Assembly (NCBI GenBank): GCA_963768655.1
Contig: CAVYIM010000009.1
Location: forward strand, 192,001-256,000
Source of the DNA: an uncultured Chloroflexia bacterium
Lineage (GTDB): Bacteria > Chloroflexota > Limnocylindria > Limnocylindrales > CSP1-4
Length of the DNA: 64,000 nt
Reading direction: 5' to 3'
The notes below the pieces were generated by a model that was given only the letters and a program-made list of their open reading frames with translations, was not told the origin of the DNA and ran no database searches. Numbering within the stretch: the first letter of the stretch is position 1; each line of letters begins with the position of its first letter. The translations under genes and the position numbers were made by a program. Of the stretch, positions 35,072-43,165 are shown one piece after another.

Positions 35072-35116
35072 GAAAACAAGAGGGCCGCGGCACCAGCCCT
35101 CGGTGTCGCGGCCCTC
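35072..35116 (-). terminator. Intrinsic terminator (attenuator) in the dap operon leader
   Basis: Minus strand GAGGGCCGCGACACC-gagggct-GGTGCCGCGGCCCTC-TTGTTTT. Confidence 0.85.
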
Positions 35117-35162
35117 GGAGCCTTGCCCTGGCTCCGCGGTTCGTCTCGAACTCAGCAGAGCC

Positions 35163-35231
35163 TCAGGGCCGAGCCTCCCGGCTGGGCCGCCGACGCTTGG
35201 ACTTGGGCTTGGCGAGGATCTGAACGAACAT
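35163..35231 (-). CDS. Putative lysine-sensing leader peptide MFVQILAKPKSKRRRPSREARP (22 aa)
   Basis: Three clustered AAG codons; ATG 9 nt after a -10 box; followed by terminator and dapB. Confidence 0.72.
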   Translation of the reverse strand: MFVQILAKPKSKRRRPSREARP

Positions 35232-35240
35232 AGCCCGCGG

Positions 35241-35270
35241 ATTATGCACTACCGTCGCGACGATGCGCAA
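35241..35270 (-). promoter_or_regulatory. Sigma70-type promoter TTGCGC-N18-CATAAT of dap operon
   Basis: Motif match with TG near the -10; same geometry as met leader promoter. Confidence 0.65.
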
Positions 35271-35377
35271 GTGTTGCGGACACTATGCAGGCTGCATGGA
35301 GCGGTTATGCACCAGGGCATCCAGGGCGGATAGGACGTTCGAATCCAATCCCGGCCGGCCGGCCCGCCTGTCACTCG

Positions 35378-36328
35378 CTACAGAGGGCGCCGGCGTCGCA
35401 CCACGAGAGCCGTCAGGATCAGCAGACCGGCTGAGGCGGCCATCATTCCGGCCGAGTCGACCGCCTCGGCGAACGGGTGACACGATCCCGGAACGAGGCG
35501 ATTGACGATGGTCGATCCTGCGGGCGGCCAGATGCTGTTGCCGTTCGCGTCGACCTCGAATGGGCGTTCCAGGACCGACACGAGATCCCCCGACGGGAGG
35601 CGGACGAACTGGTCGAGTAGGATCGCGCCGTCGTAGTTCCCCGATGTCTCGTCCACCATCACCGCCTGGCTCGGGATCCAGGTCGCCTCGGCGACGAACG
35701 AAGTCACGGTCAAGACAAGCCCGAGCGCCGCGGCGACTATCAGCGCCGGCAGGACACGGCCCATGATCGCGCCGACCAGCACCGCGGCGGCGAAGACCAT
35801 GAACCCGATGGCGACCACATCGAGGCCGCGGCTGCTCTCGTCGTAGAAGGAGAGCAGAGGGTCCACATACGGTTGCCGAGCCCGCTGCAGCTCGGTCGCG
35901 GCGACGGCTGAGATCGAGAACAGGATCAACAGGATCACGGCCACGGGTCCGACCCGGCAGACGAGCCAGCGCGTTCGCGAGGGAGCGAGAGACCAGGCGA
36001 TGGCTGCGGTGCGTTCCTCGATCTCACGGGCAACGAGCGACACGCCGGCGAAGAGGCCGGCGACGGGGGCGATGCCACCGAAGATGCCCATGAGTGGGCT
36101 GGCCCACGTGGCGTCGATCTGGCGGAACCGGTCTTCTTGCGCCTGGCATGCAGCGAGAGCCGATCCGCCGACCGCAGCGCCCGGCAACGAGTCGAAGCAG
36201 GGCGCGGAGGCGGCGCGGAGGTTCGCCTCGATGATGAATGCCGCGATGGATGCCGCGGCGACCATTGCGGCCACTGCCAGCAGCGTGAAGCGATGGAGGC
36301 GGAGAGTCAGGTGAACCTGGGTCAGCAT
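35378..36328 (-). CDS. ABC-2 type exporter permease
   Basis: GVSLVAREIEERT..AWSLAPSRTRWL motif; multiple TM helices. Confidence 0.85.
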   Translation of the reverse strand: MLTQVHLTLRLHRFTLLAVAAMVAAASIAAFIIEANLRAASAPCFDSLPGAAVGGSALAACQAQEDRFRQIDATWASPLMGIFGGIAPVAGLFAGVSLVAREIEERTAAIAWSLAPSRTRWLVCRVGPVAVILLILFSISAVAATELQRARQPYVDPLLSFYDESSRGLDVVAIGFMVFAAAVLVGAIMGRVLPALIVAAALGLVLTVTSFVAEATWIPSQAVMVDETSGNYDGAILLDQFVRLPSGDLVSVLERPFEVDANGNSIWPPAGSTIVNRLVPGSCHPFAEAVDSAGMMAASAGLLILTALVVRRRRPL

Positions 36329-37260
36329 CAGTGCGGCCTTTCGGGGCCTGAGGCGGCGGGAGCGACGGCGGGGTCGGGCGTGGCGGCCCTCGCGGAGTCA
36401 GCGCGGGGGCGCCGGCCGCTGGCCAGATAGCCCAGGACGACTTCGTCGAGCGTGGCCGGCCGACCCCCCTCAGGAGCGCGCCACAGCGCCATCAGCTCGC
36501 CGGCCGGTTCGGGAAAGGTGGAGACGAGGCCGCCACCCAGGCGCTCGGCGGCGGCCGTGATCCGGTGGTACGCCACCGCCGCGGCCAGCGTGTCGTCGAG
36601 GAGAATGCGGCCGCAGCCCAGGACCACGAGCCGATCGCAGGCCGCCTCGATGTCGGTGATGACGTGCGACGACAGCAGCGCCGTCGATCCCTCGGCGCGA
36701 ACCGCGCTGACCAGGACGCCCAGGAACTCGCGCCGCGCCAGCGGGTCCAGAGCCGCCAGCGGCTCGTCGAGGAGCAGGACCTCGGGCCGCGTCCCGAGGG
36801 CGAGCGCCAGGCCGACCTGGGCCTGCTGGCCGCCGGATAGCTCGTCGGCGCGACGGTCGAGCGGGATGCCCAGTTCGTCCAGCCGGCGGCGGGCGACTGC
36901 GCGGTCGAAGCGCGGTCGCAGACTGGCCGCCATGTCGAGGTGGTGGTTGACGGTCAGCGAGCGGTAGAGAGACGCGTTCTGCGGAACGTAACCGATGTGT
37001 GCGATCGCCCTTCCGCGGTCACGCTGGGGATCGATGCCCATGACCGTCATGCGGCCGCTCGTCGGTCGCTCGAAGCCGACGAAGCCGCGGATCAGGGTCG
37101 ACTTGCCGGCGCCGTTCGGCCCGACGAGCGCCGTGATCGAGCCGGCGGGGATTGCCAGGTCCACGTCCCGCAGCGCCTCGGTCTGTCTCCCGAAGCGTCG
37201 CCGGTAGGTCTTGCCCAGCGCGAAGGCCTGCAGGCGCGGCGAGTCGATGGTAGTTGTCAC
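36328..37260 (-). CDS. ABC exporter ATP-binding protein
   Basis: GPNGAGKST, LSGGQQ, LLDEP; GGAGGAGG RBS before GTG. Confidence 0.93.
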   Translation of the reverse strand: MTTTIDSPRLQAFALGKTYRRRFGRQTEALRDVDLAIPAGSITALVGPNGAGKSTLIRGFVGFERPTSGRMTVMGIDPQRDRGRAIAHIGYVPQNASLYRSLTVNHHLDMAASLRPRFDRAVARRRLDELGIPLDRRADELSGGQQAQVGLALALGTRPEVLLLDEPLAALDPLARREFLGVLVSAVRAEGSTALLSSHVITDIEAACDRLVVLGCGRILLDDTLAAAVAYHRITAAAERLGGGLVSTFPEPAGELMALWRAPEGGRPATLDEVVLGYLASGRRPRADSARAATPDPAVAPAASGPERPH

Positions 37261-37391
37261 GGGTCCTCCTCCGACGAACGCGGCAACCGTATCGGCGCGA
37301 TCGTGCGGCGCCCATTGGGGAGAGCCCGAGGGGGCCATTGAGGGATTTCCCGCCATCATGGGCGCAGTCCCCGGTGCTACCGTTCGGCGCG

Positions 37392-41218: not shown

Positions 41219-41481
41219 GTCGTTCAGGCTACGAAAACCGGGGTCGGCGCGTGCGGTCGAAACGCCGGGATCGGCGGCGATGAAACCCGATTCGCCGCGC
41301 CGATTGCCCTCGTCGCCCGCAGCCGAGACTGGCGACTCGGGCGCGCCGAGCCCCGCGGGGGACCCGGCGCGCGTAGATTCGACTCCGATGGCGGCTCCGG
41401 TGGGCGCGGGCCGGCCGCGCACCTCCGAGATCCATCGAATTGCCGGTTTCGATTTCATGGGGCTACTTGACGCTGCCACGC

Positions 41482-42819
41482 CTACGAGGCGGCGCCGGCT
41501 GGGGTCGCCGTGGCGGTCCGGATCCCGGTCGCGGCGCCGATTGCCTGATCGAGGTCGGCGATGATGTCGTCGACGTGCTCGATCCCAACGGAGAGGCGGA
41601 CGAGCTCAGGAGTCACGCCGCTGGCGACCTGATCCGCGGCCGAGAGCTGCTGGTGCGTCGTAGAGGCAGGGTGGATGATCAGACTCTTGGCGTCGCCGAC
41701 ATTCGCCAGCAGGCTGAATAGCTTGACCGAGTCGATCAGCCTGCGGCCGGCTTCGACGCCACCCTTGAGACCGAAGGTCACCACGCCGCCGTAGCCACCG
41801 GACAGGTATCTGGCGGCGAACCTGTGCGCCGGGTGCGAGGCCAGGCCGGGGTAGCTGACCCAGCTGACGGCCGGGTTGCCTTCGAGCCAGCGTGCGACCT
41901 CCAGAGCGTTGGAGCTGTGGCGCTCGATCCGCAGCGGTAGCGACTCCAGGCCCTGGAGGAAGAGGAAGGAATTGAACGGGCTCAGGGCCGGTCCGAGGTC
42001 GCGCAGGAGCTGGACGCGGAGCTTGAGGATGAAGGCCAGGTTGCCGAATGTGCCCGTGTAACTCACTCCGTGGTAGGACTCGTCCGGGTCCACGAAATCG
42101 ACCTTGAAGCGCGGCGAGGCCGCCCAGTCGAACCTGCCACCGTCCACAACCACGCCGCCGATCGCGGTTCCGTGCCCGCCGATCCACTTGGTGGCGGAGT
42201 GGATGACTACGTCGGCGCCGTGCTCGATCGGACGCGCCAGGATCGGGGCGAAGGTGTTGTCGACGATCATCGGGACGCCGTGCCTGTGGGCGATGGCGGC
42301 GATCCCCTCGAAGTCGGGCACGTCCAGGCGCGGGTTGCCGATCGTCTCGAGGTAGACGCCCTTGGTCCGCCCGTCGATCGCCTTCTCGAACTCGTCGAGC
42401 TTGGAGCCGTCGACGAAGCGGAAGTCGATGCCGCACTTGGGCAGCGTGTACGCGAACAGGTTGTAGGTGCCGCCGTAGAGCGAGGCGCTGGTGACGATGT
42501 TGTCGCCGGCGCGGGCGAGGTTGAGGATCGTGAGCGTCTCGGCTGCCTGACCGGACGCCACGCCCAGCGCCCCGACGCCGCCCTCGAGCGCGGCGATGCG
42601 CTGCTCGAAGACATCGGTGGTCGGGTTCATGATCCGGGTGTAGATGTTGCCGAACTCCTGGAGCCCGAAGAGGCGGGCGGCGTGGTCGGCGTTGTCGAAG
42701 ACGTAGCTAGTGGTGGCGTAGATCGGGACGGCACGCGCCTTCGTCGTCGGGTCGACGCTCTGGCCGGCGTGGACGGCGAGGGTTTCGCGGCGGAAGGCTG
42801 GGGCGTTCTGGTCGGACAC
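41482..42819 (-). CDS. metY: O-acetylhomoserine aminocarboxypropyltransferase (sulfhydrylase)
   Basis: [60 protein letters not shown]. Confidence 0.95.
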
Positions 42820-42932
42820 GGGTTCCTCCGGAGGGCGGTGCCGCCGGTCGGGCGGCAGGTAGGCGCGAGACGGGTCCCGGGAGCCCTGGGTCAGGGCAAT
42901 GGATTGGGCGGCCATCCGACGTGTCGTCCGGA

Positions 42933-42973
42933 GAAACAAAGAACCGCGGCTCCTGTCTGGAGTCCGCGGCCCC
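42933..42973 (-). terminator. Intrinsic terminator (attenuator) in the metY leader
   Basis: Minus strand GGGGCCGCGGACTCC-agaca-GGAGCCGCGGTTCT-TTGTTT. Confidence 0.85.
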
Positions 42974-43015
42974 GGGACCGATCCTCAGCTCAGTGGCGCG
43001 TCCAACGCCGGAGCC

Positions 43016-43126
43016 TCAGACCCCGTCCTCCGCACTTCGGGGCCGCCCGGGCATGGACATCATGGAACCGCGCAGGCACGAGGCCTGGCGCGAGTTCTCC
43101 CGGTGGCGCGAAGTGCGGGCGTTCAT
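43016..43126 (-). CDS. Putative methionine-sensing leader peptide MNARTSRHRENSRQASCLRGSMMSMPGRPRSAEDGV (36 aa)
   Basis: ATG ATG TCC ATG cluster; ATG 9 nt after a -10 box; followed by terminator and metY. Confidence 0.75.
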   Translation of the reverse strand: MNARTSRHRENSRQASCLRGSMMSMPGRPRSAEDGV

Positions 43127-43135
43127 TGGCCGCGA

Positions 43136-43165
43136 AGCATAGGGGCTCCGCGGCCAATTGCGCAA
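43136..43165 (-). promoter_or_regulatory. Sigma70-type promoter TTGCGC-N18-TATGCT of met operon
   Basis: Motif match; same geometry as dap leader promoter. Confidence 0.65.

Follow-up and report, generated by a model that had tools for sequence, protein, structure and literature searches.

What controls lysine and methionine synthesis in an uncultured bacterium of the class Limnocylindria (Chloroflexota), in which two unrelated operons lying about 8 kb apart are each preceded by a short open reading frame (ORF) with a cluster of codons for one amino acid? The question arises from a stretch of 64,000 nucleotides (nt), referred to below as the window (assembly GCA_963768655.1, contig CAVYIM010000009.1, positions 192,001 to 256,000 of the forward strand), which belongs to a genome of 3.37 Mb with 68.6% G+C that is 88.6% complete (designated G000). 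The initial annotation of this DNA, made from its letters alone, had suggested a modular and lineage-wide family of leaderless-peptide attenuators, possibly of common origin and used in place of riboswitches or T-boxes. According to the analysis presented here, the leaders are probably ribosome-mediated (leader-peptide) transcription attenuators, and they appear to share one platform, together with a third leader coding for cysteine, on which the sensing codons are exchanged.

The Lys and Met leaders are both encoded on the minus strand and each precedes an amino-acid operon that matches its clustered codon: KPKSK stands before dapB-dapA-dapD-lysA and MMSM before metY-metX (Table 1), so that the amino acid in the cluster is, as had been claimed, the end product of the operon. 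All of the features originally listed for the pair are present, namely the -35 hexamer, its spacer, the 9 nt between the -10 hexamer and the ATG (CCGCGGGCT in the Lys leader, TCGCGGCCA in the Met leader) with no Shine-Dalgarno sequence, the trio of cognate codons, the GCGGCCC motif, the stop context and the intrinsic terminator. The dapB ATG lies 54 nt past the T tail of the Lys-leader terminator.

A search with the terminator uncovered the third leader on the minus strand of contig C3, upstream of two genes with profile matches to serine O-acetyltransferase and CysK (cysE-cysK). The leader design is therefore used at least three times in this genome, each time with codons that match the product of the operon downstream. 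The genome's own Cys leader has one extra CGG and hence an 8-nt spacer after its cognate codons, unlike the 5-nt spacer of the other leaders. As for the motifs themselves, ATGATGNNNATG occurs 31 times and AARNNNAARNNNAAR 48 times in the genome (both strands), a GGYCGCG..CGCGRYY stem with a T tail is found in four terminators genome-wide, three of which belong to the leaders, and the arrangement GCGGCCC..GGGCCGC..GCGGYYY exists at 17 genomic places, with a T run after the three leaders only. The combination of leader motifs exceeds chance. A strict scan of the genome for promoter, short ORF and terminator returned 24 candidates, among which only the three leaders are credible, while a looser scan (terminator, short ORF and codon cluster) was abandoned as too noisy, having overlooked even the Lys leader. 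Several individual candidates were also rejected: a site with two Trp codons, yet no trp genes downstream (C6:188734), two weak model matches within or beside unrelated genes (C5:513004 and C5:427604), and two sites in coding sequence (C3:902556 and C4:173001).

The relationship among the leaders is best seen with R1, a covariance model built from 50 Lys leaders only. In the window's genome R1 scores the Lys leader at 131 bits and matches the Met leader (34.2 bits, E 1.4e-5) and the Cys leader (28.2 bits, E 4.6e-4) over their full length, with the cognate codons, the spacer, the first hairpin (hairpin A) and the terminator in register among all three. Besides leaders nothing in the genome falls under E 0.001; the next match is the Lys terminator on the opposite strand (E 0.003) and the remainder have E values of at least 0.5. 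These full-length matches by a Lys-only model bear out the suggestion of a possible common origin. The initial annotation had also proposed a covariance-model scan of the genome and its relatives, and such a scan does find the pattern before further operons (cysE-cysK, metG) and in further genomes. Specifically, a leader before metG in another genus reads AUG-GCG-AUG-CGC-UGG-CGG-CCC-CGC-CGG-GAG-GC, to be compared with the Lys consensus AAG-ucg-AAG-CGC-UGG-CGG-CCC-UGC-CGG-GAG-GC, and matches that consensus almost exactly over some 40 nt, save for the change of AAG to AUG. The leaders have a common grammar that can be written X-n-X-n-[W/G/R]-R-P, where 5 nt separate the last cognate codon from GCGGCCC.

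Of the weaker R1 matches in other genera, 35 were retrieved, comprising 31 Met-type peptides, one Lys variant before dapB and three matches without a recovered peptide. The Met-type peptides have M-x-M, in the majority M-C-M, two and four codons before [W/G/R]-R-P in 30/31 cases, and nearly all of these leaders precede metY (an amino-acid-binding protein gene follows one of them and an OsmC-like gene another). Among the pattern matches there is a Cys-type leader (..RCSCPWRPRRRR..) in genome G134, which precedes a cystathionine-beta-synthase-like gene. A Met-type leader with the peptide ..TMAMPGRPRR.. (L156, G068:C267) precedes a thrC-family gene (TIGR00260 above cut-off), which hints that this gene may serve methionine rather than threonine synthesis. 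No other specificity (Ile, Thr, Arg etc.) was seen on the platform among the 35 weaker R1 matches or among the pattern matches listed.

Two side observations concern these relatives. A further R1 match (L207, G154:C15) lies before a candidate thrC-like gene, where the peptide rule recovered no leader peptide. In most metY leaders of other genera (L176-L209) M-C-M places a Cys codon between two Met codons, the window's genus having MMSM in this position, and the metY-leader device may conceivably sense both sulfur amino acids.

The resemblance could in principle have arisen by convergence, with attenuators of independent origin acquiring GCGGCCC, GGGCCGCG and T tails from GC-rich terminators and from the same switching logic. 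Such an origin is improbable: GC-rich stems are indeed to be expected at 68.6% G+C, the middle hairpins differ among the Lys, Met and Cys leaders, and R1 scores the latter two at only 34 and 28 bits, yet these matches are full-length and have no equal elsewhere in the 3.37 Mb under the E value of 0.001, the codons, the 5-nt spacer and the in-frame xGG-CGG-CCC stand in equal register in the Lys, Met, metG and G134 Cys-type leaders, the metG leader follows the Lys consensus in all but its AAG codons for some 40 nt, and only one non-leader terminator in the genome shares the stem. That the Lys, Met and Cys leaders go back to one origin can be rated from fairly to highly likely, depending on how strictly origin is meant. 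The balance leans towards a single ancestral attenuator that was duplicated in Limnocylindria and re-programmed via two to three sensing codons (AAG, AUG, UGY), with the promoter type, the leaderless start, the antiterminator strand and the terminator retained. If this is true, a ribosome-read regulon would comprise lysine, methionine and cysteine synthesis, the Met-tRNA synthetase and related genes, and the platform would constitute a natural, evolvable amino-acid sensor with plug-in specificity, that is, a translated counterpart of the T-box.

Table 1. Coordinates of the leaders, their operons and the T-box-like matches (positions refer to the window unless a contig of the same genome is named)
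Feature	Location	Strand	Description
Lys-leader promoter	35270-35241	-	-35 TTGCGC (35270-35265), 18-nt spacer, -10 CATAAT (35246-35241); conserved in genus alignment
Lys leader ORF	35231-35163	-	ATG 35231, 22 codons + TGA, MFVQILAKPKSKRRRPSREARP and stop, cluster KPKSK
Lys codons AAG	35210-35208, 35204-35202, 35198-35196	-	direct reading
Lys hairpin A (putative anti-antiterminator)	35195-35163	-	spacer + region 1 pair with GGCCCUGA; stop codon in 3′ arm; RNAalifold consensus
Lys region 1, GCGGCCC	35190-35184	-	5 nt past third AAG; putative antiterminator strand and 5′ arm of hairpin A
Lys stop TGA	35165-35163	-	inside TGAGGCTC
Lys-leader intrinsic terminator	35116-35073	-	GAGGGCCGCG (35116-35107), loop, CGCGGCCCTC (35089-35080), tail TTGTTTT (35079-35073)
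dapB	35019-34225	-	Pfam/NCBIfam matches; Shine-Dalgarno GGAGG, ATG at 35019
dapA	34190-33141	-	Pfam/NCBIfam matches
dapD	33098-32274	-	Pfam/NCBIfam matches
lysA	about 32100-30781, start uncertain	-	Pfam/NCBIfam matches
Met-leader promoter	43165-43136	-	-35 TTGCGC (43165-43160), 18-nt spacer, -10 TATGCT (43141-43136)
Met leader ORF	43126-43016	-	ATG 43126, 36 codons + TGA, MNARTSRHRENSRQASCLRGSMMSMPGRPRSAEDGV and stop, ending ...GSMMSMPGRPRSAEDGV and stop, cluster MMSM
Met cluster ATG codons	43063-43061, 43060-43058, 43054-43052	-	direct reading
Met region 1, GCGGCCCCG	43046-43038	-	5 nt past third ATG of the cluster; complementary to CGGGGCCGC of terminator 5′ arm
Met stop TGA	43018-43016	-	inside TGAGGCTC, same stop context as Lys leader
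Met-leader intrinsic terminator	42973-42934	-	GGGGCCGCGGACTCC (42973-42959), loop, GGAGCCGCGGTTC (42953-42941), tail TTTGTTT (42940-42934)
metY	GTG 42819 to 41482	-	TIGR01326 above its cut-off; Shine-Dalgarno GGAGG
metX	41479-40193, true start uncertain	-	MetX models best-matching, yet under their cut-offs
Cys-leader promoter	C3 near 580734	-	TTGACG, 18 nt, CATGAT, then 6 nt to ATG
Cys leader ORF	C3 near 580734	-	MDSHNHNCLCPWRRPRRRR and stop, cluster CLC; GCGGCCCC after two Cys codons
Cys-leader terminator	C3 near 580734	-	GGGGCCGCGGTTCC..GGACCCGCGGC + TTTTTGTT
T-box-like match L151	C5:495568-495877		before trpE
T-box-like match L152	C7:239039-239285		before pheS
T-box-like match L153	C5:25695-25815		before class-I tRNA synthetase gene

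Conservation was followed outwards from the genus. Judged by DNA similarity, 23 of the 24 other genomes in the genus have the Lys leader, 23 the Met leader and all 24 the Cys leader; in a small-genome family of the same order (16 genomes) none of the three was found in this way. The leader ORF is open at all of the 20 best loci of each kind (20/20 Lys, 20/20 Met); the Lys peptides keep K-x-K (K-x-K-x-K in 17/20) and the Met peptides keep MMxM in 18/20, AAA replaces AAG at the middle Lys codon in 2/20 sequences, and insertions of 6 and 21 nt within the Met ORF preserve its frame in the genus alignment. Of 80 dapB loci taken from the genome collection (DapB identity from 91% down to 51%), 75 likewise have a short ORF with a Lys cluster upstream; two of the other five have too little upstream sequence and three are misses of the regular expression (the leader being further upstream or cut off). 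The form of the cluster varies (KPKSK, KKK, KAK, KQK, KRK), with the last two AAG codons invariant in 50/50 aligned family sequences. The stop context TGAGGCTC is identical within the genus only, the stop coming up to 9 nt later in distant relatives. A 1-nt indel places the stop of the Lys ORF three codons apart in near and in distant relatives, with the RNA sequence the same in both, so that the conservation of the C-terminus operates at the level of the RNA and not of the peptide. Taken with the R1 cross-matches and the alignment of the metG leader, conservation in the genus and at the dapB loci supports the modular attenuator family that had been proposed.

The larger R1 searches used strict filters and incomplete genomes, so that their blanks mean not found rather than absent. 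In a sample of the order, R1 matched 74/108 genomes of the window's family and 0/42 of the small-genome family; in a sample of the class it matched 31/44 genomes of the window's family and 4/50 of a sister family, with 0/49, 0/6 and 0/1 in three others; and in a sample of the phylum (151 genomes) matches were confined to the class, namely G000 and 5/14 other class genomes, with none in the other 136. The leaders are distributed over one family of the class Limnocylindria, plus scattered members of a sister family, and not over the phylum. The term lineage-wide is accordingly apt for this family and its scattered sister-family members, and it fails for the phylum. A plain pattern, GGCGGCCC..GGGCCGCG..CGCGG, occurs in 139/201 genomes of the family, with a reversed-pattern control of similar order, which makes it a source of examples only; two genomes flagged as unpublished (G121 and G229) are counted in this 201-genome tally and nowhere else.

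The start of the leaders is unusual. The regular expression used for promoters (TTGNNN, 16-19 nt, NANNNT) is permissive and single matches to it mean little, the evidence being the constant spacing: the distance from the end of a -35/-10 pair to the in-frame start is 5-11 nt (mode 9) in 139/139 leaders, made up of 71/71 family Lys, 18/18 genus Lys, 20/20 genus Met and 30/30 Met leaders of other genera. In the Cys leaders the -10 hexamer ends 6 nt ahead of the start. A Shine-Dalgarno-like 4-mer lies within 15 nt before the start in only 4/139 leaders; dapB and metY carry GGAGG. In established promoter geometry transcription starts about 7 nt after the -10 hexamer, and the 9-nt spacing then suggests a 5′ untranslated region of some 2-3 nt. 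We infer this 'leaderless' status solely from the distance between promoter and ATG and from the missing Shine-Dalgarno sequence. Leaderless genes have been predicted in 4/12 Chloroflexi genomes, at about 5% of genes, in an earlier survey (PMC3160421).

Turning to the RNA, consensus folding yields two elements, the terminator and hairpin A, which begins 3 nt past the last cognate codon. In the Lys leaders of the genus, hairpin A is closed by C-G in 14 aligned sequences and by U-A in 5; this covariation ties a synonymous third-base change in an Arg codon to the use of UAG or UAA as the stop. The Lys terminator stem is conserved through G-U/G-C/A-U exchanges (mean hairpin energy in the genus -24.4 kcal/mol), and in the Met terminator the alignment pair 195-226 is C-G in 15 sequences and U-A in 5 (mean -24.3 kcal/mol). 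Region 1 has a second potential partner besides hairpin A, namely the 5′ arm of the terminator. Across the 50 Lys leaders 98.5% of the cells of the 8-pair helix between the two are paired; at 2/8 pairs both strands have changed, and the covariation score was reached by 0/500 shuffles; control partners slid by 1-3 columns are only 41-52% paired. In the sister-family leader L162, region 1 (GCGGUCCUGC) and the terminator arm (GCAGGACCGC) are perfect 10-bp complements, and the 3′ arm of the terminator has changed to match. On the strength of the covariation and of the L162 variant, the pairing of region 1 with the terminator 5′ arm is taken as the antiterminator and hairpin A as the anti-antiterminator. 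In the Met leaders, region 1 and CGGGGCCGC are both invariant in 20/20 genus loci, and the Lys model aligns the Met stretch to region 1.

Two other pairings were considered. Region 2 (CGGCCCU, around the stop) as the antiterminator strand is 88% paired, has a central mismatch in 25/50 leaders and is lost in L162, and was ranked below region 1. A genus-specific upstream partner of Met region 1 (columns 20-28 with 104-112) lacks compensatory changes and has no evident counterpart in other genera; it is left here as a possible pairing.

In the attenuation mechanism proposed for these leaders, transcription would start at the leader ATG or no more than about 3 nt from it, and a ribosome would translate the short ORF while RNA polymerase approaches the intrinsic terminator. 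Two cognate codons (AAG, AUG or UGY) lie two and four codons before the in-frame xGG-CGG-CCC, where region 1, GCGGCCC(C), begins; by pairing locally with the GGCC-containing stretch that ends at the stop it would form hairpin A and let the terminator form, and by pairing with GGGCCGC in the terminator 5′ arm it would form the antiterminator. When the charged tRNA is scarce, the ribosome would stall at the cognate codons with its leading edge reaching the base of hairpin A; it would thereby melt the lower stem and leave region 1 free to capture the terminator arm, so that the operon is transcribed. With a good supply, the ribosome would cross region 1 to the stop and depart, hairpin A would re-form and termination would follow. 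With regard to timing, either an unstalled ribosome would cover region 1 during synthesis of the terminator, or hairpin A would re-form, once the ribosome has left, before the terminator arm emerges. The sequences show the parts and their conservation, the complementarity of region 1 and the terminator arm with its covariation, the agreement between codon and pathway, and the homology of the Lys, Met and Cys leaders; we infer the start site, the translation of the ORF, the stalling and the timing that would decide between the folds.

Folding calculations agree with this scheme in part. Hairpin A becomes less stable when its spacer is masked, dropping in the Lys leader from -21.1 to -15.4 kcal/mol and in the Cys leader from -16.0 to -9.1 kcal/mol. 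The duplex of region 1 with the terminator arm has a mean energy of -19.6 (Lys) and -24.0 (Met) kcal/mol, the terminators lying at about -24. When the transcript is cut before the terminator 3′ arm and masked from its start through to the spacer, as by a stalled ribosome, folding gives the antiterminator as the minimum-energy structure in 42/43, 15/15, 20/20 and 17/17 cases (94/95). A mask of this extent represents a ribosome with the last cognate codon in its A site, provided that pairing is blocked as far as about +11 from the P site; with a wider toeprint boundary it represents one at the second-last codon.

Several results weigh against the proposed mechanism. Hairpin A of the Met leader is hardly weakened by the spacer mask (-12.6 to -12.1 kcal/mol). 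With a ribosome at the stop that is represented by its footprint only, region 1 still pairs with the terminator arm in 10/15 Lys and 13/20 Met leaders (23/35), and when the ribosome is left out altogether the antiterminator remains the most stable fold in 28/43, 10/15, 10/20 and 8/17. The terminator is the minimum-energy fold of the full-length RNAs in almost every modelled state. Since the equilibrium folds do not give termination in the replete state, the switch would have to depend on timing. Furthermore, in these models the masking of region 1 by a ribosome on the last cognate codon hinges on the assumed boundary, as with the wider one only a stall on the second-last codon would free region 1. 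The covariation evidence is thin, given that 5/8 pairs between region 1 and the terminator arm never vary and that there is none in the Met genus alignment, and each leader has only two or three cognate codons.

The short ORF might also sense the amino acid with an output that is translational or works via Rho, a stalled ribosome exposing the ribosome-binding site of dapB or metY while the hairpin and T run would not be decisive. There is a precedent in the mycobacterial leaderless Cys ORFs, which are reported to act on a downstream ribosome-binding site (bioRxiv 10.1101/834739), and the CUCCGG directly after the Met terminator, which is followed by a conserved stretch, can pair with the metY Shine-Dalgarno region CCGGAG. 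This is nonetheless very unlikely, as each leader has a strong hairpin (about -24 kcal/mol) with an immediate T run that is kept in all relatives, the conserved alternative pairing aims at the terminator 5′ arm and not at the Shine-Dalgarno sequence, and the distance and sequence between terminator and start codon are highly variable, long insertions included.

Known classes of regulatory RNA were searched for as well. A scan with the Rfam covariance models (cmscan, E up to 1) found no known family in window positions 30000-48000, apart from one chance match to an unrelated family. The lysine riboswitch (RF00168) has no match in G000 (88.6% complete) or in that part of the window, although its model matches four known control genomes; the SAM-I riboswitch (RF00162) has none in G000, and the other SAM classes, searched within window positions 30000-48000, gave none there. 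The T-box (RF00230) has no match at the Lys, Met and Cys leaders. Elsewhere in G000 there are three T-box-like matches of 53.5, 41.4 and 27.5 bits, all under the Rfam cut-off of 93. With T-box-like elements beside these leaders, the genome would mix tRNA-sensing and ribosome-sensing leaders. Therefore, the proposal that the attenuators are used in place of riboswitches or T-boxes stands with regard to riboswitches, no lysine or SAM-I riboswitch having been found, and needs to be qualified with regard to T-boxes, as T-box-like elements precede trpE, pheS and a tRNA synthetase gene.

These searches bear on a further possibility, that the ORFs are untranslated and the conserved RNA is a ligand- or tRNA-binding switch similar to a riboswitch or T-box, in which the codon clusters are incidental or act as specifiers. 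One may cite for it that the stretch past the codon cluster is conserved at the nucleotide level with no synonymous change, that the 1-nt indel described above alters the peptide C-terminus while the RNA sequence remains constant, and that T-box-like elements are in use elsewhere in the genome. Still, a near-identical platform for Lys, Met and Cys is impossible for one ligand pocket, the leaders differ precisely in their cognate codons, which are in frame with a conserved ATG at promoter distance, there is no Lysine, SAM or T-box match at the leader loci, and the UGG before CGG-CCC varies (to GGG or CGG), in contrast to the T-box bulge. An untranslated switch can hence hardly be credited, less even than a translational output.

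Attenuation by leader peptides has been described chiefly in Proteobacteria, along with a few Actinobacteria, and for the most part concerns Trp, His, Thr, Phe and the branched-chain amino acids; the classical trp, his and thr attenuators are the textbook case of the leader-peptide mechanism. In other bacteria the synthesis of Lys, Met and Cys is mostly governed by riboswitches or protein regulators. The leaders described here share with the enterobacterial attenuators (trpL, hisL, thrL, leuL, pheL, ilvL) an ORF with codons for the product, an intrinsic terminator, mutually exclusive pairings that include the terminator 5′ arm, and a stop codon inside the first hairpin. They differ in having no Shine-Dalgarno sequence and an ATG at promoter distance (and would thus be near-leaderless), in sensing Lys, Met and Cys, in a long-range antiterminator that encloses one or two hairpins, and in the reuse of the platform. 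With the T-box they share, by analogy, one conserved platform whose specificity follows a codon change, the control of biosynthetic and tRNA-synthetase genes, and a choice between terminator and antiterminator; the T-box binds uncharged tRNA and is untranslated, whereas in the Limnocylindria leaders a translated ORF is the likely sensor.

Closer parallels come from other phyla. The lysine cluster of the alpha-aminoadipate pathway in Thermus thermophilus reportedly has an attenuator with a tandem-Lys leader ORF; that leader belongs to another phylum, does not concern the dap pathway and is not known to share a platform with Met or Cys leaders. Leaderless leader peptides of actinobacteria are said to have been reported by Seliverstov et al. 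in 2005, known to us as cited in a study of Streptomyces lividans. The available part of that study of S. lividans TK24 lists leaderless leader peptides leuL, trpL, ilvL, alaL, thrL and metL, the last before metNIQ (PMC8079986). These have in common with the present leaders that they are leaderless ORFs with cognate codons, some with a hairpin and U run, in a high-G+C, Gram-positive-type lineage, and that they include a Met leader. They differ in that they belong to another phylum, are reported singly, with a shared platform not described in that part of the source, and in several cases are without a clear terminator; moreover, the Met leader precedes a transporter and not metY, metX or metG, and no Lys leader is listed there (PMC8079986). 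As for mycobacteria, leaderless Cys ORFs precede cysteine-metabolism genes, and several loci are reported to depend on one amino acid (a 'ribulon') (bioRxiv 10.1101/834739). There, a stalled ribosome unmasks a ribosome-binding site and the sensor is a poly-Cys tract, whereas the Limnocylindria target is a canonical terminator, reached with two Cys codons on a platform that also serves Lys and Met.

Literature searches found nothing that joins Chloroflexi, leader peptide and transcription attenuation (supplementary tables, which may hold similar predictions, being outside their scope) and nothing that joins leader peptide, methionine codons, terminator and methionine biosynthesis; for lysine codons, leader peptide and attenuation, the search returned only a suggested Thr/Lys leader in Sinorhizobium. 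While the principle of attenuation is textbook material, the lineage, the sensed amino acids and the shared platform appear to be undescribed, and the novelty is above all the visible re-coding of one platform. The leaders would extend attenuation to an uncultured Chloroflexota lineage of soil and peat and to lysine, methionine and cysteine. As copies of a module in which only the sensing codons are changed, they offer a natural example of how a regulatory RNA gains specificity, and they lead to the prediction that a swap of codons should swap specificity. The module is also a compact design for synthetic amino-acid sensors, and recognising such short ORFs, which are overlooked by gene callers, is of use in annotation.

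Some minor observations concern the surroundings of the leaders and the rest of the genome. Upstream of the Lys promoter (35275-35345, minus strand) there are several copies of ATGCAT/TGCATAA, including the inverted repeat ATGCAG-C-CTGCAT, which are conserved in the genus; TGCAT motifs of this kind are also present in more distant relatives, and they may form an operator through which a protein regulator acts in addition to the attenuator. Directly 3′ of the Met terminator (42820-42933, minus strand), a stretch CUCCGG..ACGACGGG(Y)AGCCGCC is conserved across genera of the family (36-locus alignment) and has no Rfam match; it could be a second regulatory element or a sequence that masks the ribosome-binding site. 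At about 30100-30480, a unit of ~23 residues is repeated at least five times in the ORF translations of both strands, which implies a probable tandem DNA repeat of ~69 nt between a cydB-like gene and lysA. Finally, on the minus strand of contig C4 (323835-336573), four copies of one 35-nt string (GGCGGCCCAGGAGCC...) lie within 13 kb, which suggests that a gene or element is repeated there.

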